A DNA stretch of 64,000 nt from Geosiphon pyriformis uo1 (Eukaryota > Fungi > Glomeromycota). A program made the position numbers and the translations under genes. The notes below the pieces were generated by a model. That model was given only the letters and a program-made list of their open reading frames with translations, did not search any database and was not told the DNA's origin. Of the stretch, positions 30,125 to 62,529 are shown in pieces (positions within the stretch are counted from its first letter, which is position 1; every line of letters begins with the position of its first letter). The stretch lies in assembly GCA_016748015.1 (NCBI GenBank), contig JAAOMT010000602.1, positions 571,696-635,695 of the forward strand, read 5' to 3'.

Positions 30125-30138
30125 TTTGGTGCTCTTTT
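30125..30138 (+). promoter_or_regulatory. Primer-binding site of G (TT-TGGTGCTC...)
   Basis: Directly after the 5' LTR; same motif after the LTRs ending at 1358, 8429, 12622, 14057 and, on the minus strand, 45511 and 47211. Confidence 0.85.
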
Positions 30139-32164: not shown

Positions 32165-33523
32165 TGTTACCAGAGGTTTTTGGTCTCTTCTTAGCTCTTG
32201 TAAGTTTGTTGTAATGCTGTAAATTCATGATTATGGGAAGTGTTTGAACCTCCAATAACTAAATTTATCTTCAAATTATCTCCTATAATTTGAACTGCTG
32301 AGCTTATAAGTGGAATGGCCAATTCCATGCCAGTTACTTTGTATAGTTATGTTGTAGTAAACATCAACTCTTTCCCAGAAATTGCTTGTCTGAAAGCTCA
32401 CTAAAAATGTGTAGTTACTTTGCTGTGAAAGTCAACTTTTCTACAGAAATTCTTGTTTGTAGGATACCCAAATGATTTATAATAAAAAAAGAAAGAAAAT
32501 AAAGGAAATATAAAAGAAAAAGTAAAACTGATGATTTATGGAAGTCATTTTAGATCCAGGCCTGGAAGTGCTTTAACAGTTTACTGAAATTGGTAGCTAA
32601 TCAATTTCAAACTGTTAGTAGGAATTGGTTAATTTCAAGAGAAATAATTTAAAAATTTGGCTTTTCAAATTTATTTGATATTTTATTTTGTTTTTGTATG
32701 TAAAGAATAATTCTAATTATTAAATCTGAAGTAAGATACATTTTTTCGAAGAGAGAAGCTCTTCTTTTATACAACTTGTCATAACACTATTCTATGAACT
32801 TGAACTTTGCTCTTTTCTACAATTTTGCTGAACTAAAGATATATTTCGGTAAACTACAAGTTATTTCTGCAAACTATTAGATATTTTGGTGAACTATCAA
32901 TTATTTCGGCAAATTTTTACAAATTTTGGCAAACTTTTGAATGTTATATATTTTGGGGTATTGCATGATTGATCATCGCACTTAGGTTACATTTGTGTTA
33001 TGTACCAATTAGGTTATTAGTTAAATAATAATTTCGGACATTTTGCTAATATAATAAGTGATGATTTGAAATAATAATATATGCTAATTAATGATAAGAT
33101 TTATAAGGGTAATTTCATGCTAAACAATATCTCTAATTTTGTCTGGTAACATAACCTTCTCCTCAAGACTGAGCTCTGTCAAAGTCCAAGTACTGTCTGG
33201 GGTAATTCTTGTTGAAAGATGTTATTGTAAATGATTTCAATTTCTAAGTTATTTAATAAAACTATGAGATAATTGTTGGGATTGTAAAAAGTAACTTAGA
33301 CTTTCTTTGTTCCTTCTGGAATATAAATGTTTGGGATTGAGATATTATGTTCCAAGCAGACTTGTTCGTTGGATTCAAAAATTTGTTGTGTGGTTGTTGA
33401 CTTTGGGCAGGTGTAGATTTCTGGATGTTCTCTAAAGGGTGAAATAGTAATTGGTTGTGGAAGTTGTAGAATCTGGTGAGATTCACTTTGTTTATTAAGA
33501 GCTATGTTTACTGGAACTGTGAA

Positions 33524-36627: not shown

Positions 36628-37571
36628 TGTTATTGGAGGTTTTTGGTCTCTTTTCTTAAATGTTGTCAATGCTTGTTTGCTGTAAATTCACGTTTTCTGA
36701 ATGTGGTTGAACCTCCAGTAACTGAATTTATTTTCAAATTATCTCTTATAATTTGAATTGCTGGGCTTATAAGTGGAATGACCAATTCCATGCCAGTTGT
36801 TTTATGTAGTTACATTGTAGTAAATGTCAACTTTTTCCCAGGAAATGCTTGTCTGGAAGCTCACTAAAAATGTGTAGTTACTTTGCTGTGAAAGTCAACT
36901 CTTCTACAGGAATCTTGTCTGTAGGCTACCCTAATGATTATAGTAAGAAAATAAAAAAAAAATAAAAAAATGTAAAAGAAATAGAATTCTGTCAATGGAA
37001 ACGTTTTCTATCCAGGCCTGAAGTCACTAACAGTTTACTGAAATTGGTAGCTAATCAATTTCGAAATGTTAGTTGGGTTTTGGGGATTTTTCCAAGTGCA
37101 ATAATTAAAAAACTTGGTTTTTCAAATTATTTGATATTTATTTCTTTTTGTGTGTATAGAAATGGTTCTAAGTAATAAATCTAAAGTAAGATACATTTTT
37201 TCGAAAAAAGAAGCTCTTCTTTTATACAACTTGTCGTAATACTATTCTATGAACTTGAACTTTACTATTTTCTACAATTTTGCTGAACTAAAGATACATT
37301 TTGGCAAACTACAAGTTATTTCTGCGAACTATTAGATATTTCGATGAACTATCAATTATTTCGGCAAATTTCTACAAATTTCGAACTTTTGAATGTTACA
37401 TAGTTTGGGGTATTGCATGATTGATCATTGCAATTAGGTTACATTTATGTTGTGTACAATTTGGGTTATTAATTAAATGATAATTTCAGACATTTTTGCT
37501 AATATAATAAGTGATAATTTGAAACGATAATATATGCTAATTAATGATAGGAATTATAAGATAATTTCATG

Positions 37572-38291
37572 CTAAATAATATCTCTAATTTCGTCTGGTA
37601 ACATAACCTCCTCCTCAAGACTAAGCTCCGTCGAAATCCAAGTACTGTTTGTTATTTTCAGATGATAATCCAAAATTATTGAAAAAATTTGGTCTGAAAA
37701 TTGTTGAAATTTCAGTTCTGTGAGCTTTCCAATATATTGAATCTTCAAAAGTTGAAAAATTGGGTTTTTTAGTATGTTTTCACAGGTGTGGAATAGGTCA
37801 TAAAGTCTAAGAGCAGCTCTGAGCCTGTAGTGACTGTTTGTTGATCCAGCTGTTGTCTTGAATTCGTTGTGGAGTTGTTTCTGAATAGCTTTTTTTGTGA
37901 GGTTTGCTGTTGTAAGTTCCAGTTTCCATTCGTAGAGTGTTTTTCCAATGTGAAAATATCTATAGATTAGAGGATATTCAGTGTTTTTCTCATTGAGACA
38001 CAGTTAAAGTCTTTGTTGAATTGTAGCATTTGGTGGAATACTAATCGAAGTGAGCATTAGGTTTTCTCTTAAAGCAAGCTTTAAAAGTTCTGGCAGATAA
38101 ATTCCAGTATAACTTCTTGTGTTTTTCTTATATGGATGATATTTTTGTGAATTTGGGGTTAAATTTGTAACTACTTTTGTTTGAGTATAATTAATGTGGT
38201 TTCCAGTAACAGTAATGGATAATTCAGATATTGTTTTTAAAGCTAACATTAGTTTTTGGGATAATTGTTGAATGTTTTGAGAAATAGTTAT
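37572..38291 (-). pseudogene. ORF3 of I, reading through the PPT into the 3' LTR
   Basis: ITISQNIQQLSQKLMLALK...YRLRAALRLYDLFHTCEN...STELSLEEEVMLPDEIRDII*. Confidence 0.75.
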
Positions 38292-38412: not shown

Positions 38413-39798
38413 TTAAGTGTTCAAGTTGGGAGGCTGTTCAATAACAACTATTGGTTCTAAATTTCGGGGAATGTCTTTGGGATTGATTAAAGGGGAATGT
38501 GTACCAATTTGTGGAATTAATGGTTCAGGATTGTTTCTGGAATTATAGTGTTTCAAATGATCTTCATGTGCAACTTTTGCTAGAATTTTGTCATCAAGTC
38601 TTAGCTTGTATGATTTGTTGCCTAAAACTTCATGGATAAAGAATGGTCTATCCCATTTATTCTTAAATTTTCCACTCCATTGTTTTTCAGCTTTAATTCT
38701 GTGTAAGAAAACTTTGTTTTCAATTTTAAATTCATTGGTGACTGGAGGCAATTTGTCATCATGCCATTCTTTTTGTTGAGCTTAGAAGTGTTCAATATGG
38801 GTGGCTGCTATTCGTCGTTTTTCTTCCAATGTGTTAAGCAGAGTGTAGGCTCTTCGCTGAAGCATTTCTTGGAAATTGTTTTCATTGATTGGTTGTGCTG
38901 AGTATGTTTCCACTGTGAAACTAATTGGTAATATTGCCATCCTTCCGTAAGTTAAATCAAATGGTGTGTGTTTTGTGGTATCTTGTTTTAGTGTCTTATA
39001 TGCTAGTAACACTGATGGAATAAAGAAATCTTATTCTTGCTCAAAATCGGTTGAAACTTTGGCTAATGATTCACACAATGTTCTGTTGAACCATTCTACA
39101 AGTCCATTTGTTTGTGAATAGTAGGGTGAAGATAATGGTCTCTTGACATTAAATTGTCCACAAATTTCCTGGATTAAATTGTTCACGAAATGTGTTCCTT
39201 GATCAGATAAAAGTTCTATTGGACATCCATGTCTACAAATGATGTCTTTGTAGATGAAGTTTGCTACTGATTTTGCATCTGCCCGTTGAATGGCTCTGGC
39301 TTCAGGCCATTTGGTGAGATAGTCTACGGCTACTGCAATATAACGGTTTCCTTGGTTTGTGATAGGTAGTGGTTCAACTAAATTGATACCAACTCTGTCA
39401 AAAAGCTGTCCAATTTTGATTGGGTTTAAAGATTCTGTAGGGCGAGTTCCTCCTCTTCTTTGACAACTATCACAAGATTCGACATATTCATGAATGTCTT
39501 TTTTCATTCGAGGCCAAAAATAGTATTCTAGTGTTCTTTGGGTGGTGCTGTCTTTTCCGAAGTGGGCTGATGAAAGATCTGAGTGCATGTTGTATAATAT
39601 AGTCACTTTTTTCTGTTCTTGTATTAATCTAAGTGGTTTGTCTGGATTTTTGAAATTTCGATGATAAATAATGTTGTTGTGTAGAAAATATTGTTTGGCT
39701 TGTTGTTGTAGTTGATGTTTTTCATCTGGAGACCAATCTGTTGGGATTGTTAATGTTTCCAAATATTGTTTGAGATCGTTGTAGTTTTCCGAATTCAT
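38413..39798 (-). pseudogene. Integrase of I (separate ORF with its own ATG; no chromodomain)
   Basis: ORF 39031-39798: HSDLSSAHFG..CDSC, VDYLTKWPEA, LSDQGTHF, QTNGLVE; tail KWDRPFFIHEVLG (GPY/F module). Confidence 0.93.
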
Positions 39799-39850
39799 TG
39801 TTTGTTGGCTCTTTTGGTTAGTTAAGTTGAGTGTTGGTTTTTATGTTTTT

Positions 39851-42130: not shown

Positions 42131-45100
42131 CTGATTTTTAATAAGGTAGATAGGTATTGTTTCAATTTCTTCCATTGCTTCAGGTTCTCCAAATTCAATT
42201 TCATTCTCATCATTTTCACTGGGCAAGGGGATACTAAGAGCGTAGTATTCAGAACACTACTGTTCATTGCAAGGCATAATGCATTCTTCACATAGCCTAA
42301 TGTTCATTTGCTCTAATTATTGAATTTGAGCTTTTTGAGTTGGGTAGGTGTGACTTGCAATTTGGTGGTAGACTTCTACTTCATCTTCGTAATTGAATCC
42401 AGCTAATTCTATAATGTATTCAATGTATTCTGCTTCCTTCATTTGACGAACATCTTCTTTGGTAGCTCCATTAATTAATGCCATTGCTAAATCAAAAATC
42501 ATCTCAGCATCATGGAGGTAGTGATAAAGTTTGTTGAAAACACTGTTGTATACCACATTAAAGGGTGTTCCTCTTTTTACTTTCTCTGAAATTGATAAAG
42601 CATATTGGCAGGTCTGATCGCAGACTCCTCCTCTTATGGTTACATCAATCCAATTGCATTCTTCCAGTAGCATATCTCCACAAGTCAAACAAGAGGTGTT
42701 GTCCCATTTTCCACTTCTTTTTATTAGATGGCCCCATCATTCTCTGTGGCAAGCCTTGCAGTAATAACAAGTATGATTTTAATATTTTTCTTCAGGTGAA
42801 ATGCAGGCTCCCATTGACGATAGTTTTTTGTGGCAGTCCTTACATTTAAGAGGAATATAAGAGCATTGTTTCTTTGGTTCAGGTTTTGAGTAAGGGATAT
42901 TCCATTCAGAGGTTTCGAGTTCAGAGTGTGGGGTAAAATGTTCTTGTTCTGTTTTATCAGCCCAGTTGGACATTAATCCAAGAGCCATGAATGTTTCAAT
43001 AAGGGGTTTTTTTTCTTCCGGTTCAAATTCAAAAGCTAGGGCTTTTTCAGAGTGTTTGTTAAATATACCACAAGTGGCAGGTACCCGGGTGTATTATTCT
43101 TGGTAGGAGATTGTTAACTCTTGTGTTTCTCAATTCAGATTAGCATTGGCTTTTTGAAGCCAATTATTTCTGATGAGAGCTTGGTACTGGGGTGCGTCCA
43201 TTGCAAGAACTTTGACTGGAATAATAATTCCATCAAGAGTGAATGGAAAATTGTCAATTTCTCCTACTGGGGTCTTTTTCATGCCATTAGCAGTGACGAT
43301 TACTGTTTGAGCTGGTCAGTCAACATTTCTCTTCAACTGTTGGATTAACTGGTAGGTGATAATGCTTCCAGTGGATCTACTGTCTAGGATCAAGCAAATT
43401 GTCTTTCTTTCGACTTTTGCTTCAGTGTACATAGCCATGATTGCTTTTTGTTCATTGGCAGCTGTATTGCTAAGCAGGAATAGTGACTTATTTGCTTCGA
43501 ATTCAAAAAGGAATATATCTGAAGTTAGCATTTTCAGCGATTCTGGCTGGTGGGATTGTGGTGAGAGTATAGGAAGAGTTTTGTTGTTGTGCTGCAGCTC
43601 TACCTTCTAAGGATGCAGTATGATAAAAATTCTGTTCTTCTGGTATTGTTAAATAACTGGGTTGAGTGTGGTAGTGGTTGGGTCTTGGTTGAGTGGAATT
43701 TCAGGAAACCAATTGGTTGTTTGAACTGATTCTATTGTTGTTTACTTGGTATCGGTTTTGTGATGTGAATTGATTTTGTGTAATCAGTCTTCAAGCAGGT
43801 ATTTGATAATATTGTGTGGGTGGTTGTTGGTATTGCTGTTGGATTGGCTGTGGAGCAGGCTGATAATAGTTATTTTGGTATTGGAGTCTTGGTGGATAGT
43901 AAGCTGGTGGTCGTGGTTGATAATAAGATTGCTGTAGTAGAGGGTAACGTTGATTACTCCTATTTTGTTGGTTTTGTTGTAGCTTTCTGCAATCTTTTTT
44001 CCAGTGGCCAGAGATTCCATAGTAATGGCAATTCTGAGGCTGGTTATTGAAAAGTGGTGCAAAGTTATTTTGATTTTGTCTTTGGGGTAATTGATATCTT
44101 TGGGGTTGCTGTTGTTGTTGATTGGTAAAATAGTTTTCAACCTTCTTTGTGAGTTGGTCAATTTTTTTCTCGGCTGTTGAACTGGTTTCTCTAATTGCCA
44201 AATTTACAAGTTTTGTGCAATTGGTCTCTTCCATGGCTATTTCATATCTTTTCGCATGCTGTATGGCAGAGTTTAAATCTTCTGGCGCATGTGGGCAAAC
44301 CTTTTTAATTAGTTTATCTTTTAGACCAGCAATAAATTGATCCAAGATTTGAGCATCGGAATAATAATCGTTTGTTTTGAGTTGGCGAATTTGTCTAAGA
44401 AGTTTGTTGAATTTCCCAATATAAGTTATAACAGATTCGGAGGGTTCTTGTTTGATATTTCGAAAACAATTGTGAAGGGTGATGGAAGTATTATTGTCAG
44501 TAAACTGTTCAAGGAAGGCTGCTTTGAAAGTGTTCCAATCATTGAATGGGGCAGCCAAGTTTTCAAACCATTCTTCTGCTGTTCCTTTGAGAAAGTAGGA
44601 ATTTGTTCTTAACATTCTGGTAGCATTCCATTCATTTGCATCTTCAGCTTTAGTAACTTGGTTGAGTCATTCTTGGGGACTGGTCTCAATGTCTTCTCCA
44701 TTAAATTCAGGGATTTTTGCGATGTATGTTGTCATTTTATCTTCTTTGTTCTCACTCTTTATTGATTTTTCTTAAGATATTTCAGGTTTGTTTTTTTCAT
44801 TTGCTGCTGTCTTAGTGTTCACTTTGATTTTCAGCTAAAAAGTCAAGGAGATTGGAATTAGTTTGAAGGGGTTCTTGTTGTCTAATGGGACTTCTGAGTG
44901 ATGTAAAATTTTTTGGTCTTGTAAATCAATTCAAGGGTGAATTAGGTGTTTGTGCTTGTGCAAGTGAAGCTGGAAAAGGTGTGATAGTAAGTGAAAGTTT
45001 TGAACTGGTTCCTTGTTCAGGTGTTTGTAAATGGTTGGCAGTTGTTTTTGGTAGTGTTGGAGTATTTGGAGTGGTTTTTGAGTATTGCTTCAATTGGTTT

Positions 45101-45510
45101 TTGCCTTTGTTGCTTGTTTCTGTTTCCGATTCAAAATCAATAATGTATTGAGATTGCACTGGATATGTTTCTTCACAGTATTTGATAATGTTAAAATTAA
45201 GTTTGTGAAAGTAAGTGGCAAGTGTTTCACTGTTAAGATCTTCAGTTCCCAACTGTGAATAGTGTGCTAAATTATTGTAAAGGTTGTTTCTAACTTCTGA
45301 GATATTGTAATTTCCAAAAAAATAATTGTTGATGCAGTTTTCAATGTATTGGTATACTAATTTCTTGACAACTTCAATTCCGTCTGGAATGTTCAATCTT
45401 TGCTTGCAGTGGGTGTAAATTGACTGGTAATACTCTAGAGTTGTTGCGTCTGGTATGGTCACCACTTTGAAGTTGTTTTTGCTGTGTTGTTTCCATGGGA
45501 GAGCACCAAA
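42131..45510 (-). pseudogene. N-extension, Gag, protease and Cys-rich region of I
   Basis: ORFs 44926-45465, 43791-44615, 43316-43531, 42779-42988 and 42317-42688; first ATG at 44735. Confidence 0.9.
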
Positions 45511-46490
45511 TATTACTGGAGGTTTTTGGTTTCTTTTCTTAAATGTTGTTGATGCTTGTTTGCTGTGAATTCACGTTTTCTGGATGTGGTTGAACCTCCA
45601 GTAACTGAATTTATCTTCAAATTATCTCTTATAATTTGAACTGCTGGGCTTATAAATGGAATGGCCAATTCCGTGCCAGTTGCTTTATGTAGTTACGTTG
45701 TAGTAAACGTCAACTCTTTCCCAGGAAATGCTCATCTGGAAGCTCACTAAAAATGTGTAGTTACTTTGCTGTGAAAGTCAACTCTTCTACAGGAATCTTG
45801 TCTGTAGACTACCCTAATGATTATAGTAAGAAAATAAAAAGAAAATAAAAAAATGTAAAAAAAATAGAATTCTGTTAAGGAAAATGTTTTCTATCCAGGC
45901 CTGAAGTCACTAACAGTTTATTGAAATTGGTAGCTAATCAATTTCGAAATGTTAGTTGGGTTTTGGGAATTTTCCAAGTGCAATAATTAAAAAACTTGGT
46001 TTTTTAAATTATTTTATTTATTCCTTTTTGTGTGTATAGAAATGGTTCTAAGTGATAAATCTAAAGTAAAATACATTTTTTCAAAGAGAAAAGCTCTTCT
46101 TTTATACAACTTGTCATAACACTATTCTATGAACTTGAACTTTGCTATTTTCTACAATTTCACTGAACTAAAGATACATTTTGACAAACTACAAGTTATT
46201 TCTACGAACTATTAGATATTTCAGTGAACTATCAATTATTTCAGCAAATTTCTACAAATTTCGGCAAACTTTTGAATGTTACATAGTTTGGGGTATTGCA
46301 TGATTGATCATCACAATTAGGTTACATTTGTGTTATGTACAATTTGGGTTATTAATTAAATAATAATTTCAGACATTTTTGCTAATGTAATAAGTGATAA
46401 TTTGAAATGATAATATATGCTAATTAATGATAGGAATTATAAGATAATTTTATGCTTAATAATATCTCTAATTTCGTCTGATAACATCAT

Positions 46491-47210
46491 TTTCTTTGTT
46501 CACTGCTGTCTCAGAGTATTCACTTTGATTTTCAGCTAGAAAGTCAAGGAGATTGGAACTAGTTTGAAGAGGTTCTTGTTGTCTGGTGAGACTTTTGGGT
46601 GATGTAAAATTTTCTAGTCTTGCAAATTGATTTAAGGGTGAATTAAGTGTTTGTGCTTGTGCAAGTGAAGCTGGAAAAAGTGTAATAGTAAGTGGAAGTT
46701 TTGAACTGGTTTTTTGTTCAGGTGTTTGTAAGTGTTTGACAGTTGTTTTTGGTAGTATTGGGGTATTTGAGGTGGTTTTTGAGTATTGCTTCAATTTTTG
46801 TTTGCCTTTGTTGCTTGTTTTTGTCTCTGATTCAAAATCAATAGAGTATTGAGACTGCACTGGATATGTTTTTTCACAGTACTTGATAATGTTAAAATTT
46901 AGTTTTTGAAAGTAAGTTGCAAGTGTTTCACTTTTAAGGTCTTTAGTTTCTAACTGTGAATAGTGTACTAAATTATTGTAAAGATTGCTTCTAACTTCTG
47001 AGATATTGTAATTTCCAAAAAAATAATTGTTGATGCGGTTTTCAATGTATTAGTATACTGATTTCTTGACAACTTCAATTCCGTCTGGAATGTTGAATCT
47101 TTGCTTGCAGTGGATGTAAATTGATTGGTAATACTTTAGAGTTGTTGTGTCTGGTGTGGTTGCCACTTTGAAGTTGTTTTGCTGTGTTGTTTCTATGGGA
47201 GAGCACCAAA
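46491..47210 (-). pseudogene. N-terminal gag extension of H
   Basis: Nearly identical to 30125-30845 (G) and 44790-45510 (I). Confidence 0.85.
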
Positions 47211-48197
47211 TGTTACCAAAGGTTTTTGGTCTGTTTTCTTAAATGTTGTCAATGCTTGTTTGCTGTGAATTCACGTTTTCTGGATGTGGTTGAACCTCCA
47301 GTAACTGAATTTATCTTCAAATTATCTCCTATAATTTGAACTGCTGGGCTTATAAGTGGAATGGCCAATTCCGTGCCAGTTACTTTGTATAGTTACATTG
47401 TAGTAAACGTCAACTCTTTCCCAGGAAATGCTCATCTGGAAGCTCACTAAAAATGTGTAGTTACTTTGCTGTGAAAGTCAACTCTTCTACAGGAATTCTT
47501 GTTTGTAGGATACCCAAATGATTTATAATAAGAAAAGAAAGAGAATAAAGAAAATGTAAAAGAAAAAGTAAAACTGATGATTTATAGAAGTTGTTTTGAA
47601 TCCAGACCTGGAAGTGCTTTAACAGTCTACTGAAATTGGTAGCTAATCAATTTCAAACTGTTAGTAGGAATTGGTTAATTTCAAGGGAAATAATTTAAGA
47701 ATTTGGCTTTTCAAATTTATTTGATATTTTATTTTGTTTTTGTGTGTAAAGAATAATTCTAATTATTAAATCTGAAGTAAGATACATTTTCTCAAAGAGA
47801 GAAGCTCTTCTTTTATACAACTTGTCATAACACTATTCTATGAACTTGAACTTTGCTTTTTTCTACAATTTCACTGAACTAAAGATATATTTCGGTAAAC
47901 TACAAGTTATTTTTGCAAACTATTAGATATTTTAGTGAACTATCAATTATTTTGGCAAATTTCTACAAATTTTGGTGAACTTTTGAATATTACATATTTT
48001 GGGGTATTGCATGATTGATCATCGCACTTAGGTTATATTTGTGTTATGTACCAATTAGGTTATTAGTTAAATGATAATTTTGGACATTTTGCTAATGTAA
48101 TAAGTGATGATTTGAAACAATAATATATGTTAATTAATAATAAGATTTATAAGAGTAATTTCATGCTAAACAATATCTCTAATTTCGTCTGGTAACA

Positions 48198-51100
48198 CTG
48201 TTTAGCAATGTAGCTGCCAACGAACAAAAAGTAATCACTGCTATGTACACTAAAGCAGAAGTCGAAGGAAAGGCAATTTGTTTGATCCTAGACAGTGAAT
48301 TTGCCGGAAGCAATATCACCTACCAGTTAATACAACAGTTAAAGAGAAATGTCGACTGACCAGCTCAAACAGTAATTGTCACTGCCAATGGTATGAAAAA
48401 GACTCCAGTAAGAGAAATTGACAATTTTCCATTCACTTTTGATGGAATCACCATTCCAGTCAAAGTTCTTGTAATGGATGCACCCCAGTATCAAGCCCTT
48501 GTCGGAAATGATTGGCTCCAAAAAGCCAATGCAAAATTAGACTGAGAAACCCAAGAATTACAACTCTCCTATCAAGGACAACATGCCTGAGTACCCACTA
48601 CTTGTGGTACATTCAACAAATGATCAGAAAAAGCCCCTGTTTTCGAATTTGAAGAAGAAAAAAAAAAGATTGTAGTCAAAACATTTATGGCAATTGAATC
48701 AACATCTAACTGGGCTGAAGAAACTGAGCAAATGTATTTTGCAACAAACTTATATCCAGAGGAACCAGAAACTCCTGGATAGAACATCCCATATTCTAAA
48801 CCAGAACCAAAGAAATGACACCCTTACATTCCGCTTAAATACAAAGACTGTCACAAGAAACTCTCCTCAATAGGAGCCTGTATTTCACCTGAAAAAGAAT
48901 ATGAAAATCATACTTGTTATTACTGCAAGGCTTGCCACAGAGAATGATAGGGCCATCTAATAAAAAGAAGCAGAAAATGGGACAACACCCCTTGTTTGAC
49001 TTGTGGAGATATGCTATCAAAAGAATACAATTGGATTGATATAGCAATGAGAGGAGGAGTCTGTGATCAAACCTGCCAATATGCTTTATCAATTTCAAAA
49101 AAAGTCAAAAGAGGAACATCTTTTAATACAACATACAACAATGCTTTCAACAAACTTTATCACTACCTCCATAATGCTAAGATGATTTTTGACCTAGCAA
49201 TGGCATTAGTTAATAGAGTTATCCAAGAAGATGTTCGTCAAATGAAAAAAGCAGAATACATTAAATACACTATATAATTAGCTGGATTCAATTATGAAAA
49301 TGAAGTAGAAGTGTACCATCAAATCACAAGTCACACCTATCTGACTAAAGAAGCTCAAGCTCAATGGCTAGAACAAATGAACATTAAATTATGTAAGGAA
49401 TGCATAATGCCTTGTGATAAACAATGGTGTTTTGAATGCTATGCTCTTAGCATTCCCTTGTCCAATGAAAGTGATGAATACGAAATTGAATTTGGAGAAC
49501 TTGAAGCAACAGAAGAAATTGAAACAACACCCATCTATCTCATCAAAAATCAGCCTGTCTTACAACTCAAATACTTCAACAACAATGGACAAAAAATAAA
49601 ACCCAAAAAAGCACATGAAATTGATGCTGGATATGACCTAAGATATCCAGACAAGGATACTCTCATTCTTAAACCCAAATCTCTCACAAAAATCAACCTC
49701 AAAATTGCTTTCGAAATCCCACCAGGAGCAATAGTTCAAATTGCCTCTTGGTCCTCTCTGGCAAGCAAAGGAATCAATGTCAGAGGAGGAATAATCGACA
49801 CTGGATATACTAGTGACATAACAGTAATACTCCATAACAAAATTGACAAGCTGTTTAAGATTAGACATGCCAAGAAAATTGCCCAAGCCATTTATTTACC
49901 CTTAATTAACATTTTGGGTTTACAATTAGTCAATCAAAGAGAACTATTGGGAAAAAGTGAAAGAGGAACCCAAGATTTTGGTTTAATTGAATGATTCACA
50001 GTTCCAGTAAACATAGCCCTCAACAAACAGAAAGAATCTCACCAGATTTTATGACTTCCACAACCAATTACCATTTTACTCTTTGGAGAACACCCTGAAA
50101 TTTACACTTGTGAAAAGCCAACAACCACACAACAAATTTTTGAGTCCAACGAACAAATCTACTTGGAACATAATATCTCGATCCCAAACATTTATATTCC
50201 AGAAGGAACAAAGAAAATTCGAGTTACTTTTTACAATCCCAACAATTTTCCCATAGTTTTATTAAATAACTTAGAAATTGGAGTTATTCACAGTAATATT
50301 TTTCAACAAGAACTATCCCAAATAGTTCCCAATTTCTCAAAAATCATTAGACATTCACTACCAAAAATCAACCCAAACCCCAGCTCTAAAAACTATCATG
50401 TTGTCATAGAAAAACTATCTCGAATCAACATAGGACAACTTGAACCACAACAACAGAGCCAGCTCAAAAAGCTAATTGCAGAATTTGCTGATATTTTTGC
50501 CGAAAACAACAATGACTTAGGAAGAATTGATTTGGTTCAACACCAAATCTATACAAGAAATGCCAAACCAAGGTGACAGCAAGCCTACCGAGTTGCTCCA
50601 GAAAGTTACCAATTTATCCATAAAGAAGTACAATGGATGCTCAACAATAGGCTTATTTAACCATCAATAAGTCTATAGGCTTCACCTGTGGTCTTAGTTA
50701 AAAAGAAAAATGGAAAGATACAATTTTGTATTGATTATTGACAACTCAACAGTGTCACTATTGGAGATGCCTACCCTCTTCTCCAAATTAATAACATGCT
50801 AGATGCTCTTGGAAAGTCCAAATACTTTTTGACATTAGATTTAGAGAGTGAATACTGGCAAGTTGCCATGAATCCCAAAGATCACTCCAAAACAGCATTT
50901 ACCACTCAAGGAGGAAATTACGAGTTCAATATAATGCCTTTTGGATTATGCAATATACCAGCAACATTCTAAAGACTCATGAATGTTGTTTACAAAGGCC
51001 TCTTTTGGAAATCAGTAGTTGTTTATCTTGATGATACTAATGTCTATTTACCATTTTTTGAATTACACTTAAAACATCTGTGCAAAGTTTTTTAATGATT

Positions 51101-51833
51101 ATGAAAAGCAGGATTGAAACTGAACATCAAAAAATGCTACTTCAGAAAAACGAGTTTGGCCTTTCTTGGTCACATTGTTAGCCAAGATGGAATTAAACCA
51201 GATCCTGAAAAAATCAGCACTGTCAAAAACTACAAGACTTCATGAAATACCACAGAATTAAAAGAATTTATTGGATTAGTATCCTATTACTGAAAATTTA
51301 TTAAAAGATTCTCAGAAATTACAAAACTCCTCAACTAGCTCACTACTAAAAACATCGAATACAAATGGATAGAAGAACACCAAAAAGCTTTTGAAATTCT
51401 CAAGAAAAAGCTAACAACAGCTCCAATTCTCGTCTATTCAGACTTCAGTAACTGATTTCAACTAGCTACAGACACTTTTTACACTGCCTTTGGTGCCATC
51501 TTATCACAATTAGATGACAACAGAAATGAGTAAGTAATTGCTTATGTTAGCAGAACATTAAAACCAGCCAAGAAAAACTACCCTGCCACAGAACTAGAAA
51601 CAGCAGCCGTAATTTGGGCCTTACACCACTTCAACCTTTATCTCAGGCCTAAAGAATTTGATATTATCACTGATAATATTGGACTCAAATGGCTTCAAAA
51701 TAAAAACACTCAGCTGAATGCCAAACAAACCTGATGGACAGGATTTTTAGCCAACTACCAATATATTGTATACCACAAACCAAAAAAACTCCATATCAAC
51801 ATTGATTGTCTCTCAAGAATGAGACAAGATTAG
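48198..51833 (+). pseudogene. pol of G: protease, Cys-rich domain, dUTPase (~49540-49990), linker, RT, RNase H; stop at 51831
   Basis: LILDSEFAGS; AHEIDAGYDL..GGIIDTGYTSDI..SERGTQDFG; VVYLDDTNVY; LATDT; LSRMRQD*. Confidence 0.92.
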
Positions 51834-51879
51834 AATACAAAACCAACACCCATTTGAATTAACAACAAAACAACAAACA

Positions 51880-53266
51880 ATGAATCCCGAAAACTACAAC
51901 AATCTTAAACAATATTTGGAGACATTAACAATTCCAACAGATTGGTCTTCAGATAAAAAAACATTAGTTACAACAACAAGCCAAACAATACTTCTTACAC
52001 AACAACATGATTTATTATCGAAACTTCAGAAACTCAGACAATCCACTCAGATTAATACAAGAACATGAAAAAGAAACTATTTTATATAATATGCACTCAG
52101 ATCCTTCATTAACACACCTAGGAAAAAACAGCACCACTCAGAGAACACTAGAATATTACTTTTGGCCTTAAATAAGAAAAAACATTTATGAATACATTAA
52201 GTCTTGTGATAGTTGTCAAAGAAGAGGAGGAACTTGTCCTACAGAACCTTTAAATTCAATCAAAGTTGGACAGTCTTTTAACTGAATTGGTATTGATTTA
52301 GTCGGACCACTACCTATCACAAACCAAGGAAACTGTTATATTGTAATAGCTGTAGACTATCTCACCAAATGGCTTAAAACCAGAGTCATTTAACAAGCAA
52401 ATGCGAAATCAGTAACAAACTTCATCTATGAAGACATCATTTGTAGACATGAATGCCCAATAAAACTTTTATCTGATCAAGAAACACATTTCATAAACAA
52501 TTTAATCCAGGAAATTTGTGGACGATTTAATGTCAAGAGACCATTATCTTCACCCTACTATCCACAAACAAATGGACTTGTAGAATGGTTCAACAGAACA
52601 TTGTGTGAATCATTAGCCAAAGTTTCAACCGATTTTGAGCAAGAATAAGATTTCTTTATTCCATTAGTGTTACTAGCATATAGAACACTAAAACAAGATA
52701 CCACGAAACACACACCATTTGATTTAACTTATGGAAGGATGGCAACATTACCAATTAGTTTCACAGTGGAAACATACTCAGCACAACCAATCAATGAAAA
52801 CAATTTCCAAGAAATGCTTCAGTGAAGAGCCTACACTCTGCTTAGCACATTGAAAGAAAAACGACGAATAGCAGCCACCCATATTGAACACTCCCAAGCT
52901 CAACAAAAAGAATGGCATGATGACAAATTGCCTTCAGTTACCAATGAATTTAAAATTGGAAACAAAGTTCTCTTATACAGAACTAAAGCTGAAAAACAAT
53001 AAAGTGGAAAATTTGAAAATAAATGGGATGGACCATTCTTTATCCATAAAGTCCTAGGCAACGGATCATACAAGCTAAAACTTGATGACAAAATCTTAGC
53101 AAAAGTTGCACATGGAGATCATTTGAAACACTATAATTCCAGACACAATCCTGAACCATTAATTCCACAAATTGGTACACATTTCCTTTTAATCAATCCC
53201 AAAAATATTCTCTAAAATTTAGAACCAATAGTTGTTATTGAACAACCTCCCAACTTGAACACTTAA
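51880..53266 (+). pseudogene. Integrase of G (separate ORF)
   Basis: ATG at 51880, MNPENYNNLKQYLE; CDSC; IGIDLVGPL; KWDGPFFIH; stop at 53264. Confidence 0.92.
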
Positions 53267-53388
53267 CTTAAATTTATTATTATAGTTATCTCCTTATAAT
53301 TCAAAAACAATCTCACAAAAACAAAGCAAAAATAACATAAAAACCCATACATCAAAAATAATTTTCTTTTATTTTCAAATCTCTTATA

Positions 53389-54108
53389 ATGACTATTCCT
53401 CAAAACATTCAACAATTATCCCAAAAACTAATGTTAGCTTTAAAAAGAATACTCAAATTATCCATTACTGTTACTGGAAACCACATTAATTATACTCAAA
53501 CAAAAGTAGTTACAAATTTAACCCCAAATTCACAAAAATATCACCCATATAAGAAAAACACAAGAAGTTATTCTGGAATTCACCTGTCAGAACTTTTAAA
53601 GCTTGCTTTAAGAGAAAACTTAATACTCATTCTTATTAGTATTCTACCAAATGCTACTATTCAACAAAAACTTCAACTGTGTCTTAATGAAGAGAACTAC
53701 GACTATACTCCAATATATAGATATTTTTACATTAGAAAAACACTTCACAAATGAAAACGGAAGCTTACAGCAACAAACCTCACAAAAGAAGCTATTCGGA
53801 AACAACTCTACAATGAATTCAAAACAACAGCTGGACCTACAAACAGTCGTTATAAACTAAGAGCTGCTCTTAGACTTTATGACCTATTTCACACCTGTGA
53901 AAACGTCCTACAAAACCCAATTTTACAACCTTTAAAGATTCAATACATTGGAAAGCTCACAGAACTGAAATTTCAACAATTTTCAGACCAAATTTCTTCA
54001 ATAATTTTGGATTATTATCTGGAAATTACAGACAGTACTTGGACTTCGATGGAGCTCAGTCTTAAGAAGAAGGTTATGTTACCAGATAAAATTAGAGATA
54101 TTATTTAG
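53389..54108 (+). pseudogene. ORF3 of G (239 codons, one internal TGA at 53752), unknown function
   Basis: ATG at 53389; the same frame continues KRKLTATNLTKEAIRKQLYNEFKTTAGPTNSRYKLRAALRLYDLF...VMLPDKIRDII* with the stop inside the 3' LTR. Confidence 0.8.
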
Positions 54109-55046
54109 CATAAAATTATCTTTATAATTCCTATCATTAATTAGCATATATTATCATTTCAAATAATCACTTATTACATTAGCAAAATGTCCGAAATTAT
54201 CATTTAATTAATAACCCAATTTGTACATAACACAAATGTAACCTAATTGCAATGATCAATCATGCAATACCCCAAAATATGTAACATTTAAAAGTTCACC
54301 AAAATTTGTAGAAATTTGTAGAAATAATTGATAGTTTACTGAAATATCTAATAGTTTGCAGAAATAACTTGTAGTTCGCCGAAATGTATTTTTAGTTTAG
54401 CAAAATTGTAGAAAAGAGCAAAGTTCAAATTCATGGAATAGTGTTACAACAAGTTGTATAAAAGAAAAGCTTCTCTCTTCGAGAAAATATATCTTACTTT
54501 AGATTTATCACTTAGAACCATTCCTACACACACAAAAAAAATAAAAATCAAATAATTTGAAAAACCAAATTCTTTAATTATTGCACTTGGAAAATTCCCA
54601 AAACCCAACTAACGTTTTGAAATTGATTAGCTACCAATTTTAGTAAACTGTAGTGACTCCAGGCCTGGATAGAAAACGTTTCTCTTGACAGAATTCTATT
54701 TCTTTTACATTTTTTTTATTTTTTTTCTTTTATTTTCTTATTATAATTATTAGGGTAGTCTACAGACAAGATTTCTGTAGAAGAGTTGACTTTCACAGCA
54801 AAGTAATTACACATTTTTAGTGAGCTTCCAGACGAGCAATTTCTGGGAAAGAGTTGACATTTACTACAACATAACTACACAAAGCAACTGGTCATTCCAC
54901 TTATAAGCCCAGCAGTTCAAATTATAGGAGATAATTTGAAGATAAAATTCAGTTATTGGAGGTTCAAACACTTCCCATAGTCATGAATTAATAATACTAC
55001 ACCAAACATACAAGAGCTAAGAAGAGACCAAAAATCTCCAGTAACA

Positions 55047-55731: not shown

Positions 55732-55953
55732 CTTTTGTTATATTTTTGTTTTCAACTGTTTAAATTTTGTTATATTTTTGGGTTGAAATGTTTTTTAGAT
55801 TTGTTTTATTCTTAATAAACCAGAAACTTTTTTCTCTTGTTGATTCCCTGACCATAACAAGAGCAAAATTTTATCAGAATTTTAATTAGTTTTTTCTTTC
55901 TTTTCTCTTTGTTTTTTTCTAATTATTTTTTCGACTTTTTTCTCTTTGTTGCA

Positions 55954-57851
55954 ATGAAACCAGTGGGCTTCTCTGCTTGTGGTTCTAGTTCCATTTCGGC
56001 TGGGTTGGGGACCTGGTCTAATAATAAAAAGAAAGCATATATTAAGAGCATATACTCTTATGGCCCTTTGTACAAGAAATCTAAGAATCCTAGAAATACT
56101 GATGGTATGGTAGATTTGTCAACTGGTTCTATTTCTGGTGACGTTTTACAAGCTAGCATTTTAGAACACAAGGAGTTTTGGGGTAGCAAAGTGGAAAGTG
56201 AGGAAGCTAGTGTTAGTGGAATATCTAACTTGAAAAACATGGACAACATGATAACAAAGAAAATAAGTTATGTAGATTCCAATGACTCCGAAGCTAATAA
56301 TATAGTAAATGATATAACTCTAAGAAAGACATAAATGAGGATGTATGTTCTAGAACAACTGCCAAAAAAACTTTCTTTCAATAATATGAGTAATGTTGAT
56401 GACATTTTGGAGCTCCCATCTCCTAAGTTTTATGGTTTCAATCAGCTGCTGAGTGCCAAGTCATGTGTTTTGGAAAAGAGGAGCTTTGAGCCAGTGAAAT
56501 CATTTACATTAGATATTAAGCTTTCAGTTATTCCAGGCAAATCTGTTAATAACAAGTTGATTTTAATAAAAAAAATTTTTTATCAAGTTGATGAGTTTGG
56601 GGGAGCCTCTGCTCCCTTAAAATTTCCAGGGATCATCAGATCTTTATTTACTTTGGAATTGAGCTTAAATAAAGCTAAAAAAATAACAATTTGTGAAAAT
56701 ATTTTGGTAAACAATAATGTTAAGAAGCTAAATAGTTGTTTGGATCAGGAAATAGTTGTCAAAGAGATTTCAGTCAATCTTTCCAAATTGGCTGTGGAAT
56801 CAAATTTGGCAAGATTGTATCAATTAAGATACAATTGATTGGTCTGTGGCAGAAAGCATTGGTTGAATATGAATTGTTTGAGATAGCTAATTTGGTCGCA
56901 GCTAGATAGTCTGTCTTCATGGAAAAGAATTCTGTTCATGTGACAAAAGCCATTGATAATAAACAAATATGAGTTTCCAGAGATTGACATTGGACTTTGT
57001 TGTATACACTTCTAGTTGGCATTATTGCTCATAATTTGTCAGGATTATTGGATTCTTATAGTGGAAAAACTTGTTTTATTGGCTGTAATCTGGCTATATA
57101 TGTTTGTAATAAGTGTGTTGTGATTTGTTTCAGTGATGAGGCATCCAAATTGGCTGCCATGAGTTCTCTGCTTGTTTTCAAGAGTGTGAATTTGTGCTGG
57201 GCTAGTCTTTTTCTAGTCTGTTGTGCCAATTGTAAACAATCTGGTCATGTTTTTGAATTTTGTTTATTGGGTGAATTTTTTGGTGTTCATGGGAAATAGA
57301 TGGTAACTTTTCAAGATTAAGTCTATTTGGCCAATATATATAGAAAGAAATAAGCACCCATTGCTTATCCAGTTTCTTTTGGTAGTCTCTCCTGGGTAAA
57401 AGTTGTTGGTAGATTCTCTTTTTCTCCTCTCTCTGGTCAAAATGTTTTGGCAAACATTGGCTCTTTTTCAAAGATGAAGTCATCCTTACCAGTTGCAAAT
57501 GAAATCAATGATAGGTTTGCCACTCTTGAACACAGTCTTGCCAGCCTCACAGAGCAAGTTGGTAAGCTGGCTAAGAGATTAGATGCACTTGAGTCAATGG
57601 TTTCTCAGCCTAGCCTTGGATGTCAGCCATTGGTAACCCTTTCATTACAGAATCAAGGAGTGGATGCAGTGATAAGTAAAAGTTCAGATGCATCCACTAG
57701 TAGTGAGACTGTTGTGGGAGTAGTGTTATTTGATGTGTCTTCAGTGTCTAAGCTGAAATACAGCATGAGATGTTTGATAGAAACAGTTCTGGGCCTTTCG
57801 ACCAAAGTGGACATTCTTGGTACAAGTTTGGTTCCCCAATACACTTCTTAA
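55954..57851 (+). pseudogene. LINE ORF1 (RRM-like region, CCHC knuckle, C-terminal coiled coil)
   Basis: ATG at 55954, MKPVGFSACGS; CANCKQSGHVFEFC ~57220; DRFATLEHSLASLTEQVGKLAKRLDALE; stop 57849-57851. RRM and coiled-coil calls are by eye. Confidence 0.82.
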
Positions 57852-60800
57852 TAAGTGATTTAGTTTGGAAAGTTGCTACTTGCAATATTAGAGGAATGAA
57901 CAATTTTGTGAAACAGGATGATATTATTTGTTGGCATAAGAATATGAACAATTTGATTTTTATTGTTACTAAAACTAAGTTAAAAGATAAGATTTATCTA
58001 TGGTTCATAAATAAGTTTAGTGGTGTCTGGATTTTCACTTCTGGTTTGAATTCTGATCATATGGGCTTTGGTGTTATAGTTATTATAAATGTTTCTTTGA
58101 CAAGACATGTGAGCAAAGTTTTTGAGGTACCTGGTTGGCTCCTGTCTATTAAGTTGTTTTTTAAGAATAAACTTTTCATGTCAATTTTGGGGCTTTACAC
58201 TGGTGTTTCTTCAGTAGTTTGGTTCTTTCAGACTAACAAAATCAACTCTCTCATTGCTAAGACTGTGAACGAATCTACCTTTGTCATTCTTGGTGAAGAT
58301 TTCAATAAGAACAGTTCATGTAAATGTGCTAGTTTCAAAAAGTGTCTCAATCTGGGACTGGTTAATTCTCTGTTGGGTAGCTTAGTCATGAGGGATCTCA
58401 TGTGAAAAAATTCAAGAGATGTTAAAAAAACAATTAATTATGTATTTGTCTCTCCAAATCTGGTTAATGCAATAATATATTGTGATGTTTCAGAGGTTGG
58501 CAAACATTTTGATATGAATTACTGGGCAGTTTCAGTGTCCATAAGTTTGAGTGGGCTTTTAGATACACAGTTGAACTCTCTTTGCAAACAAGCAAATAAG
58601 GATCATTGGAAATTTGATGTCAAGTGCATGGATGAAAATAAATAGACCAAGTTTAAGAATACTACATTGGCCAATGCTGCAATGTTTTTTGATGAGTTTG
58701 CTGTTACTGTAAAGTTCTCAAATCTGAATGCCATGTAAGATGTTGTGGACAAGGTGATGTGTCTTTTAGCAAATGAATTTTTTAAAAAAAAGTGGTTTAA
58801 AAGGTATGATAGTGTTTTTATCAAGGAATCCTCTAAGTTTTACAAGCTTGAAGTTTTGGTGTCAAGAATTGCCAAGATTTTGCATGAGGATGTTAGTAGT
58901 GCTTTTGAATTTTTGATAAACTGCTAGAAGTCTTTAGATGCTGATAAAATTTTGTCTATTCAGGCTCTGTTGAATTCTGATGTGAATTTTGATCATGTGC
59001 ATTTGATTCTTTTCAAGATGTAAAAATCATATTGTGCCTTCAAGCTTGCTGAGTTGTTACAGGCTGAGGAGTCAAGAATTAGGTCAGCTGTTAATAAACA
59101 AATAGAAAATTTTGTGGTCAACAAAGATTACATGATCAGAAGTGTGCTGAAGTGTCCTTTTCAAAAAGTGGTTTTAGACCATCTGATGATTGAAGATGAA
59201 CTGATTTTGGAGCCCAATCTGGTTAAAACCAAAGTGGATGTTATAATAGAGAGCTGAACTAGAAAGCATGAAATAATGGAGGACTTCTTTGATAATTGAT
59301 TTCATCAATATCAGCCTTTGGATTATGTTTTTGATGATGCTTTTTTAGGAGTAATGTGTTTGGTTAGTTTCAATGAATTGCTCAGTGTGATGTCTAATTT
59401 ACCTAATGGCAAGACTGCCAGTTTTTTTGGAATTTCAAATAAGCTTTGGAAGTATTGTAACAAATCAGTCATGGATATGCTGTTGGTTCTCTTAAATTCT
59501 TGTTTAACTCTTGAGACAGTGCCAGGTGCTTGGAAGGAAGCCTGGGTCTTAATAATTCCCAAGTCATATGAGTGGAAGGGAATTCTTATGAACACTCAAC
59601 CTATTGTCCTAATTAAGACTGCTTGCAAAATTCTTTTTAAGATTCTCTTGGACAGGATTTTTTCAGTGTGCAGTATTTTTAATGTTTTGTAAAGGGACAA
59701 TTTCTTAGTTTTGAAGGATATGACTATGCAATTTCTAATTTTTGCTATTGGTTTGGTAGTTGAGAATGCATTAGAAAAGAACTGTGAGCTCTGGTTGGTC
59801 TTGCAAGACATGTAAAAGGCCTACAATTTAGTAAATTGTAAGCATCTTAAGAGAAGCTTGGTTAGAATAAAAATGTGCAATAAATTCATTAGATTTTTTG
59901 GTGACATTCACAATAGTTATGTTAATAGGGTTATAACAGATTTTGGTTTAACAGATAGATATTAGATACATGATGATTTGAATTAGGAAAAGGTCTTTTC
60001 ACCTCTTTTCTGATGTATATTTTATGATCCTCTTTTGTGTAAGGTCAAAAGACAGGAAAGTGTATGTAGATATAGATTGAACTCTCATTTTATTGTCAGG
60101 ACTGGTCATGCAGAATCTCAGGCCAGGTTGATGTCTTTTCTTACTGCTGTTGCTTTTGTCAATGACATGATATGAGTTGGTAACAGTTAAGCTGTAACAA
60201 AACACATTTTCAATGTTGCTAGTGAGTTTTTTAAGATCAATGACATTTCTATTAATAATAACAAGATGGTGGCCATTCTTATAAATTGTGGAATAAAATA
60301 TCTTTCTTTGTTAATTAGTGGTTCACCTATTTTTATTACTAAGAAAGAAGAGTCTTATCACTACTTAGGTATCTTTTTGTCTACGAATAGTTTGTCGAAG
60401 CCTAGTTTAGCTAAGGTGCATTTGGACATCAGGTTTTTTGTTAATCTTGTGCTACAGAAGACCATTTCAGATAAACAGTTCTTATATTTAGTGTTGATTG
60501 TTCTATGTTTTATTGTTAGCTACAGAATGCAATTTAGTTTTGTTCCTATTGGAGTGTGTGAAAAGTGGGATGCTCTGGTTCACAAGGTGTTGAAATTGAA
60601 GTCTGGTCTGCCTCTTGACTTTCTTAGTAATGCACTTTATCACTCTTCTTTATATGGTTTAAAGCTTTTTGAGCAAATTCAGGCTAAAAGCAAGGTGGTT
60701 TCTGTTGTGTGCTTTGTAAACTCTGTTGGGATTTTGGAACGTTTGTTTTTACACAGATCTCTTGACTTGCAAACTCTGAGTTGGTGCCCAATACATCTTT

Positions 60801-62529
60801 TAATCTCTCCAGTTCGCATTAGGGTCAGCCCTTCTAATAATTTTTTGGCAGGTGTGGTTTATATTTTTTTTGGCTGCAATTTATTTTTGGATGGTCTGAT
60901 GGTCAGTTCTTTCCACTTTTGGAATGAAACTCCTATGTTGACTGTTCTTAGTGAAATTAATTTCTCTAGATTTCTTTTTTCACTTTGCTGCTATAATATA
61001 GCCTTTGTAGAACAGCTTCGTAGTCAGAAGAGCACTGTTTTTGATTAGAAGACTTTTAAGTAATGGAAAAGACTGGACTCACATGGCCTTGTTCCAGACT
61101 GGTTTAGGTTTTTTGTTGACTTTTTTAGTGGCATAACTTCTTCTTCTGCCAGTCCTTCCCCTTTGGGTGATTATGGACTTTCGAATGTTCTAGGGTCTAA
61201 TGAGTTTGGACTTGTTTGTAAGCAGTTGTTAAATGTTGCAGCTGATACCTTATTTGTATATATGGATGGATCTTTAAGGAACTTGGACAGTGCTGATGTG
61301 AAGACTAGCATGGCAGTTTTTTTTGAGAATGTGAACTTGGATTTGGGAGTTAGGATTTCTAGTCTGTTGTTCTCTACTTTAATAGAGTTGCAGGCTATTG
61401 CTTTAGCTCTTGAGTGTATCTTCTTTTTCAGCTCAGTTTGCCTTTTCACTAACAGTCAGACTGCCTTGGATGCATGCAAATTGGAATTGAGTTTGATGCA
61501 TCCAGATTTTTGGAATCGGTGTTGGATTGAGCATCAGCACATTGTAAACATTATTAGGAAAAAGTCTTTAAATGTCAGTTGGTATAAGATTAAAAATCAC
61601 TTGGGTGTCTTGGATAATAAACATACAGACGCTCTTGCTGATACAGCTTCTTTTTTCCCCTAGTGTCTTTCTCTTAACTTGAAGAAATGTTATATATTGG
61701 CAGAGGATGGTGTTGTTTCTGAGAATTCTAGACATTTTGTTCATGGAATTTTTTGTTCTATTTATCGTGCATGTTGGGAGCTTGGTTCTGGATCTGGAGT
61801 TTTGGATGGTAGTTTGCTTTCAGATGTAGATTGGCCTAGCTCATTATCAGTGTGGCATCTCAACTTGCATATGGCTGCTGGGTTCACTAATAAGCTTACT
61901 GCCAGTACTTGTATATACTTTATAAAAGTCTTGTATTATTGATTGTCTGTTGCTGTTTAAAAGCATCTGTATAATAAGTGTTATCTCAGTGTGTTATGTC
62001 TGTATTGTGAAGATGTTGAGGTCTCAGATCATGTTTTTTTTTACATGTTTGATAATTTGGCTTGTTGTTGTTTATTAGACACTTATGTAACTATTTGGTA
62101 TGCATTTTCTGATCTTTTTGTCTTCTTTTTATGTGTATCTTGTTTTTTGTCATCTGGTATTTTGAATGTTGCAATGTGTATAGCTCTTTACAAGGGCTTT
62201 GTTTTTAAGGATTGGCTTTATAAGGCTGCATCAGTTTTTGAAGATTCCAAAGTTGTGAGTCAGAAGATTGTGGACTTTGTGTGTGACTTTTGTCTTGCTT
62301 TTAGGGAAAAGATTTGGTTGGTCTATGCCAAGCATCATGCTTTTATGAAAAAGAATGGGCTGATACCATTTAATGGATCAATTCTAAAGTCAGTTTTAGG
62401 GTTGTTCTTGTTGTTTTCTGCTGGTATGATTAAACTATTGGGTATTGATGAGGCATTTGGTATAGAGTTAAGTCTTATTTGTTTCTCTTAGATATTGAAA
62501 GGCCTATTTTTGTTTATATAGATGCTTAG
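57851..62529 (+). pseudogene. LINE ORF2 (APE endonuclease, RT, RNase H, C-terminal Cys/His finger)
   Basis: KVATCNIRGMN..ILGEDFN..INYVF; AFVND at 60152; YHYLGI; VYMDGSL..IELQAIALAL..NKHTDALA; CLYCEDVEVSDHVF. Confidence 0.9.

Follow-up and report, generated by a model that had tools for sequence, protein, structure and literature searches.

The window, that is, the whole stretch of 64,000 nucleotides of Geosiphon pyriformis DNA analysed here, contains LTR retrotransposons, a class of element that makes up 41.2% of the genome of this fungus (PMC11952901). In all four elements of the window that retain the interval between integrase and 3' LTR (G, I, D and F), and also in an independent element named L001, this interval holds an open reading frame in sense orientation, hereafter ORF3. 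Four copies at the env position had been reported in a first-pass annotation, and coordinates and translations agree with it: the frames span 211–239 codons, each with an integrase before it and an LTR after it. The end of a further copy was located by tblastn.

53389 to 54108, forward strand: ORF3 of G, subfamily A1, 239 codons, one internal stop at codon 122
37572 to 38291, reverse strand: ORF3 of I, subfamily A1, 239 codons, one stop at codon 96
21548 to 22183, forward strand: ORF3 of D, subfamily B1, 211 codons, 7 stops
27770 to 28429, reverse strand: ORF3 of F, subfamily B2, 219 codons, 12 stops
33123 to 33197, reverse strand: final 25 codons of an ORF3 of A type, within an element that has an internal deletion

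None of the four copies is intact (1, 1, 7 and 12 stops), and the start codon of the I copy has decayed to ATA. Where the copies have stops, natural homologues nearly always have Q, W or R, the pattern that decay by single C>T or G>A changes would leave. The CpG observed/expected ratio of the 64-kb window is 0.16. In D and F, the ORF3 stops arose mostly from Gln codons (CAA/CAG), which implies that C>T decay strikes CpA too, beyond CpG.

The carriers are Ty3/Gypsy elements with the order gag, protease, dUTPase, reverse transcriptase, RNase H and integrase, as seen from Pfam and from a tblastn map of I, G and D, the reverse transcriptase having been read directly. Pfam matched gag, protease and integrase, with Integrase_H2C2 and rve on the I copy. 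Fungal Gypsy elements with a dUTPase at this place, after protease and before reverse transcriptase, have been described before (PMC2864245). Paired LTRs are present in I and D, with within-pair differences that are almost only transitions, and the G and F carriers are 5'-truncated by neighbouring insertions. A polypurine tract is seen ahead of the 3' LTR, which starts with TG.

49500 to 49898, forward strand: dUTPase domain of G, flanked by protease and reverse transcriptase; I and D have it too
51880 to 53266, forward strand: integrase of G, decayed, with its own ATG 46 nt past the RNase H stop (51831–51833)
51831 to 51882 (forward), about 39790 to 39850 (reverse), about 20090 to 20140 (forward) and L001 772 to 801: RNase H–integrase junctions
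53267 to 53388, forward strand: spacer of G from integrase stop to ORF3 start, 122 nt, 2% G, no ATG, last AG 64 nt upstream
54042 to 54073, forward strand: motif GGAGCTC, then inverted repeat CTCA-N4-TGAG (TGAG decayed to TAAG), and polypurine tract of G
about 37605 to 37640 (reverse), about 33155 to 33190 (reverse), 22160 to 22195 (forward), about 27760 to 27795 (reverse) and L001 3085 to 3115: the same motif ahead of the polypurine tract
54077 to 55046, forward strand: 3' LTR of G, TG...CA, family A
22197 to 23098, forward strand: 3' LTR of D, family B

An A/C-rich spacer of 25–50 nt separates, in G, I and L001, the RNase H stop from an integrase that begins at its own ATG; D is laid out alike, but its ATG is gone. 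The titles and abstracts returned by a literature search made no mention of a separate integrase ORF. The earlier label 'third ORF' is correct in that the frame follows the integrase, but the latter is itself a separate ORF in G, I and L001, and the label should be read as the ORF after integrase.

Families A and B, as well as L001, carry the GGAGCTC plus CTCA-N4-TGAG motif directly 5' of the polypurine tract, where it could possibly form a hairpin or a protein-binding site. The motif is translated in different frames in the two families: in the A group, ORF3 continues across the polypurine tract and enters the LTR (by 32 nt of the 3' LTR in family A, as in the G copy), whereas in the B group it mostly terminates with GAQY/F immediately ahead of the tract; the D copy also stops just 5' of it. 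Since both endings represent one DNA motif in different frames, the tails reflect a cis element and not protein function. The C-terminal tail of family A was accordingly rejected as a functional part of the protein: it is a read-through of the cis motif, the polypurine tract and the LTR start, with pLDDT below 50. Matches common to the family A and B LTRs are all at most 50 nt long, and most lie in one T-rich stretch.

Other features of the window accompany these elements. Family A LTRs occur in seven copies of 84–94% identity, in about three subtypes, several of them nested in other elements. Upstream of the capsid domain, a long frame without Pfam match starts within the 5' LTR of family A and extends across the primer-binding region; it probably encodes the N-terminus of Gag or else represents another ORF. 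Protease and dUTPase are separated by some 280 codons that include several Cys/His clusters. Decayed frames elsewhere recall, by eye, the endonuclease, reverse transcriptase and RNase H of a non-LTR retrotransposon; Pfam gave no match for three fragments of them.

11013 to 12024, 29150 to 30124, 32165 to 33151, 36628 to 37603, 45513 to 46487, 47211 to 48197 and 54077 to 55046: family A LTR copies
44926 to 45570 (reverse), 30065 to 30634 (forward) and 46468 to 47270 (reverse): frame starting in the family A 5' LTR
48650 to 49500, forward strand: region with Cys/His clusters, with equivalents in I
about 55858 to 62491 and about 23912 to 25249, forward strand: decayed frames resembling a non-LTR retrotransposon

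Relatives of ORF3 are numerous in Geosiphon. The G query gave 197 matches among 444 candidates, and all 120 matches listed were G. pyriformis hypothetical proteins; the G copy is 82–87% identical to full-length models of 239 amino acids. At the protein level, 23 annotated models are collinear with G, are exactly 239 amino acids long and have Q, W or R at the position of its stop. The D query matched 4 of 215 candidates, all from Geosiphon. When a combined A and B profile was run with HMMER against 1.84 billion representatives, 99 matches were obtained at E ≤ 0.001; 10 divergent ones were looked up, of which 8 were from Geosiphon and 2 were metagenome proteins. In a third search, 49 of 50 matches were named Geosiphon. 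Altogether 252 relatives were assigned to subfamilies A1 (101), A2 (43), B1 (14), B2 (45), C (4) and E (42), the remainder being two metagenome lineages of 2 and 1 proteins. The tree contains two well-supported groups, A1 and A2 with the metagenome proteins versus B1, B2, C and E, and comes with long-branch warnings. In one public DNA run, possibly of the source sample, 4009 contigs fell on the G ORF3 frame, 70 of the 83 changes listed were transitions and no indel reached 10%. The 252 relatives and 4009 contigs establish that the copy number of ORF3 is high. Many of the relatives are spliced or chimeric gene models. Among the Geosiphon models P0129–P0256, many join parts of ORF3 by splicing to fragments of integrase, gag, dUTPase or LINEs, and such chimeric models inflate the annotated host gene count.

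The homology of families A and B despite their unrelated LTRs, proposed at first sight of the sequence, is borne out by hhalign (probability 89.7%, E 1.8e-6, 184 columns). An HMM built from A alone scored four of six B proteins above all 500 shuffles, the scores of two gapped B models being reached by 3/500 and 242/500 shuffles; conversely, the B-only HMM placed four of five A proteins above all 500 shuffles, and the G score was reached by 1/500. The Y-x-Y and RLYxxF motifs, also pointed out earlier, are kept across eight subfamily rows, and the motifs and a conserved hydrophobic core span these eight lineages at 20–38% identity. ORF3 has no similarity to the element's own Gag, and neither ORF3 nor the L001 integrase had a relative among the viral contigs searched. 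A resemblance of the C-terminal half to an expanded set of hypothetical proteins from arbuscular mycorrhizal fungi, suggested earlier, is upheld in part: with the core as query, the ESM Atlas ranks two Mucoromycota clusters first at 0.94 (175 and 166 of 256 features shared), but no Mucoromycota hypothetical protein is among the 99 HMMER matches at E ≤ 0.001 against 1.84 billion representatives, so that any link remains remote and unproven. Among the titles and abstracts returned by full-text literature searches, none describes this ORF3; supplementary transposable element libraries may contain these elements.

L001 provides an independent example of the same arrangement. Its reverse transcriptase–RNase H ends at a stop; next come an integrase, which has an ATG of its own and a single premature stop, a G-poor spacer of 316 nt, ORF3 and an LTR. 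This ORF3 is intact, with 230 codons, and extends past the polypurine tract into the LTR. The protein is 29–30% identical to G and 25–27% to D and F, and the C-terminus of the integrase is 40–52% identical. L002 contains the same junction and LTR.

The ORF3 protein is not an envelope protein, as had been noted from the sequence. The highest 19-residue Kyte–Doolittle mean is 0.44–1.29 in nine of nine proteins, and this lack of a hydrophobic membrane stretch argues against Env; moreover, each of the nine has 1–2 Cys, none of them conserved across subfamilies, and Pfam found no env family in 53 members. At the N-terminus, the 9-residue hydropathy is 0.7–1.7 (a measure other than a dedicated signal-peptide predictor), and the model consists of a helix plus a hairpin. 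The full-length model has a pLDDT of 67, the N-terminal helix, the beta-hairpin and a basic linker being poorly modelled. The core alone (about residues 80–205) is predicted to form seven helices, with pLDDT 90.1 and pTM 0.83. In the majority rows of eight subfamilies, conserved polar residues cluster at a predicted helix-turn-helix junction: K143 in 6/8, N145 in 8/8, R/K151 in 6/8 and R155 in 6/8 (P0177 numbering). A Pro-Tyr-basic linker precedes the core in A1, A2, B1 and both metagenome proteins, and residues 30–70 have a net charge of +3 to +7 in eight of nine proteins. Overall, the intact proteins are not strongly basic (pI 5.4 for P0177 and 5.9 for P0164).

Searches for a known domain returned no confident match to an env or transposon domain in Pfam, the PDB, Foldseek or VIA-align, in line with the first-pass annotation. 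Pfam and phage genomes gave no credible match; in PHROGs the best hit (E 4e-4) was a family of unknown function, NCBIfam scores were all far below cut-offs and, among PDB sequences, importin-5 appeared at E 0.11–0.38. Foldseek returned 0 matches at E ≤ 0.001 for the full model and the core. Among the 48,161 chains compared with VIA-align none reached Z 8, the best being Orc6 (Z 5.7, rmsd 3.5, 72 aligned), and a second pass peaked at Z 4.3; such a lack of structural match does not establish a new fold. The ParB/Spo0J helix-turn-helix and DUF1016_N share with the ORF3 core a similar order of helices, with the GK turn and RL motif in register, but their profile scores are at or near shuffle level. 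The VIA-align rows for ParB (1vz0_A, Z 4.5, rmsd 4.8, 94 aligned; 6s6h_B, Z 4.5, rmsd 2.6, 59 aligned) are tied with unrelated helical bundles. Neither candidate was supported: with 29 natural sequences, hhalign gave ParB (PF17762) 0.2% and a score of 11.0, against 9.0 ± 1.6 for shuffles (maximum 14.0); with 77 natural sequences, DUF1016_N (PF17761) obtained 0.3–0.7%, the 0.7% comparison scoring 15.7 with a shuffle maximum of 14.8. ParB versus DUF1016_N, the positive control, reached 85%. The role in nucleic-acid binding or anti-silencing that the first-pass annotation thought possible gained no profile support from these two helix-turn-helix families. Further hints of DUF1016_N were a best Pfam E of 0.028, in 4 of 53 members and far below cut-off, and an Atlas value of 0.85. 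A GDSL esterase or DEDDy exonuclease was discarded, as the core is predicted to be all-helical, no such Pfam is among the 25 families shown and there is no conserved Ser/His/Asp set.

Comparison of D with F shows purifying selection on ORF3 between subfamilies. In a frame-blind DNA alignment, omega is 0.16 in the ORF frame (p 2e-7) and 0.71–2.85 in the other five frames, and second-position differences are half as frequent as those at first or third positions. Between G and I, omega is 0.79 (p 0.36) for ORF3 and 0.84 for integrase; near-neutral values in both genes are expected where decay after insertion dominates. Selection estimates depend on the method: counting with transition weights yields pN/pS of 0.54–0.94 for D and F and of 0.79–1.47 for A–B pairs, and likelihood fits are saturated for most A–B and L001 pairs. 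The case for selection rests on the D–F pair, the motif pattern over eight lineages and the intact L001 copy.

The same pair revealed a second feature of ORF3.

21500 to 22400, forward strand, limits approximate: block of D comprising ORF3 and the first part of the LTR (presumed U3), deeply diverged from F, with flanks that are not

Transversions between D and F affect 8 of 569 sites in integrase and 111 of 607 in ORF3 (p 4e-25). The rise is abrupt near position 21,500; divergence is still high over the first 200 nt or so of the LTR and falls again in its 3' part. The non-coding spacer, with 9 transversions in 175 sites, is more alike than the selected ORF3. At fourfold sites, transversions amount to 4/9 in ORF3 versus 2/31 in integrase (p 0.016), although these counts are small. 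The ORF3/integrase transversion ratio is 25 for D–F versus 1.6–2.4 for eight deeper pairs, whose ratios are compressed by saturation. G and I show a milder ORF3 excess, 16/720 versus 9/1267 in integrase (p 0.006). The combination of near-identical integrases with a sharp divergence over ORF3 and the first part of the LTR points to the exchange of a cassette. Recombination is likely to have moved ORF3 together with U3 or, equivalently, to have homogenised pol; this exchange is deduced mainly from one pair, D–F, with U3 assigned by position. ORF3 and U3 adjoin on the RNA, so a single template switch moves both and no functional coupling is needed.

The layout upstream of ORF3 bears on its expression. 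The integrase–ORF3 spacers of G, I and L001 contain 2–4% G and no AG within 64–85 nt of the start, which argues against a splice acceptor adjoining the ATG. Evidence for a TATA box in the spacers was rejected, TATA-like words being at chance level (40–67% of shuffles reach the count). We infer that ORF3 is separately expressed, via an internal promoter or re-initiation rather than an ATG-adjacent splice acceptor. Integrase shares the arrangement of stop, short A/C-rich spacer and ATG, and internal starts or re-initiation may therefore recur in these elements.

Additional ORFs in sense orientation, downstream of pol and ahead of the 3' LTR, are an established class, and ORF3 is one of them. Overlap with U3 is a feature of nef and of MMTV sag. 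In the methylated genome of Arabidopsis, the VANC proteins of VANDAL DNA transposons are anti-silencing proteins specific to their family, and they vary along with the element that encodes them; no homology of ORF3 to VANC was seen, and VANC comes from plant DNA transposons. The aORF-3S of plant Gypsy elements (Athila, Bagy2) has the same position, orientation and multi-copy presence as ORF3, and is described as env-like, in some cases with transmembrane domains and a spliced mRNA (PMC7264820). In contrast, the Geosiphon ORF3 is fungal and has no membrane stretch, no adjacent splice acceptor and no Pfam match. The closest architecture is that of the dUTPase-carrying bdelloid elements Juno and Vesta, as they are described: these are also of Gypsy type, with dUTPase between protease and reverse transcriptase and a family-specific, exchangeable, non-envelope ORF3 at the env position (PMC5408684). 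The bdelloid ORF3s are GDSL esterases, DEDDy exonucleases or transmembrane/coiled-coil proteins (PMC5408684), whereas the Geosiphon core is predicted to be all-helical and shows no such motif or Pfam match.

Selection, hydropathy, A/B homology and the predicted core together sustain the original description of ORF3 as a maintained, soluble, helical accessory gene common to both families, and we hold with high confidence that it is an accessory gene which selection maintains, located after integrase and before the 3' LTR in Gypsy retrotransposons that carry a dUTPase. Its function can be proposed with less assurance. We favour, with a probability of about 0.4, a nucleic-acid-binding regulator of its own LTR, a reading that draws on sequence, structural models and analogy. 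The soluble helical protein would localise to the nucleus and bind nucleic acid of its own element, most likely the U3 promoter of the LTR; binding would switch on or un-silence transcription of the element, and ORF3 and U3 would be exchanged as one module by template switching. This proposal relies on the position of ORF3, on its association with U3, on the basic residues conserved at the turn and on host methylation; in R. irregularis, transposable elements carry CG methylation and small RNAs (bioRxiv 10.1101/2021.03.30.436303). A possible parallel is offered by foamy viruses, with their transactivator gene and internal promoter (PMC7828637). Their Tas/Bel-2 is likewise a small non-membrane gene next to or into the 3' LTR (PMC7828637) and serves as a working analogy, but no sequence or fold similarity of ORF3 to it was found, and the Geosiphon element has no env.

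Among the alternatives, binding to a host protein is the least improbable, at roughly one chance in four in our judgement. ORF3 might act in counter-defence, or it might, like Vpr, help the integration complex to enter the intact, non-dividing nuclei of a coenocytic hypha. At least six deeply diverged subfamilies in one genome, which diverge far faster than integrase, are what an arms race would produce; the core is a predicted all-helical bundle without helix-turn-helix profile match, and the carriers possess a dUTPase, which has been proposed to aid replication in non-dividing cells (PMC2864245). However, the conserved exposed K/N/R residues fit nucleic acid at least equally well, and omega between subfamilies is well below 1.

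A post-transcriptional role resembling that of Rev or of the Cer1 protein CERV, in which ORF3 would bind element RNA and control its export, splicing or translation, is unlikely, slightly more so than host binding. The integrase of G, I and L001 is a separate ORF behind a stop, so that downstream frames need regulated expression, and ORF3 is small and soluble, with a basic linker. CERV, an accessory regulator in an LTR retrotransposon of C. elegans, sets a precedent; it is made from a spliced mRNA and exports genomic RNA (PMC10309623). The searches nevertheless gave no sequence or fold link to CERV or Rev and no homology of CERV to ORF3 was seen, the absence of AG near the start in G, I and L001 leaves no adjacent splice acceptor, and RNA binding alone does not explain the fast turnover of ORF3 types.

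We consider it very unlikely that ORF3 is a structural protein joining the particle or a self-restriction factor that limits transposition of its own or rival elements. Ty1 p22 does limit transposition of its own element. A soluble helical bundle would suit such a role, and weak look-alikes exist (closterovirus coat in the Atlas, 0.93; PFV2 capsid, Z 5.2, rmsd 3.1, 68 residues), but the capsid look-alikes score the same as unrelated helical bundles and ORF3 is dissimilar to the element's own Gag. Least probable of all is a captured host-gene fragment or Env remnant that is now hitch-hiking: all four window copies are broken, omega between G and I is not below 1 and the core may resemble Mucoromycota proteins, but purifying selection between subfamilies, the hydrophobic core and motifs conserved in eight lineages at 20–38% identity, an intact ORF3 in L001 next to a pol with a premature stop and the lack of a membrane stretch have largely refuted it.

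The regulator reading can be extended, though we regard the extended form as doubtful, at about half the weight given to the simple one. ORF3 would then be a sequence-specific activator or anti-silencer, from a helical family not described before, paired with its own U3 and swapped as a cassette on a shared pol to escape methylation and small RNAs; it would have helped LTR elements to reach about 41% of the genome (PMC11952901), and the same domain would have seeded large orphan families of mycorrhizal fungi.

Additional ORFs in the place of env are known from LTR retrotransposons as a class, and most are unexplained. The Geosiphon ORF3 adds to this class a compact, foldable and selected family that has no named match in the libraries searched and comprises at least eight lineages with intact natural members. 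Well over two hundred 'hypothetical protein' models of Geosiphon are suggested to be transposon ORF3 copies or chimeras and not host genes. As ORF3 has apparently been exchanged together with its LTR promoter, comparison of cognate with non-cognate LTRs could reveal whether these retrotransposons carry an activator or anti-silencing gene of their own.
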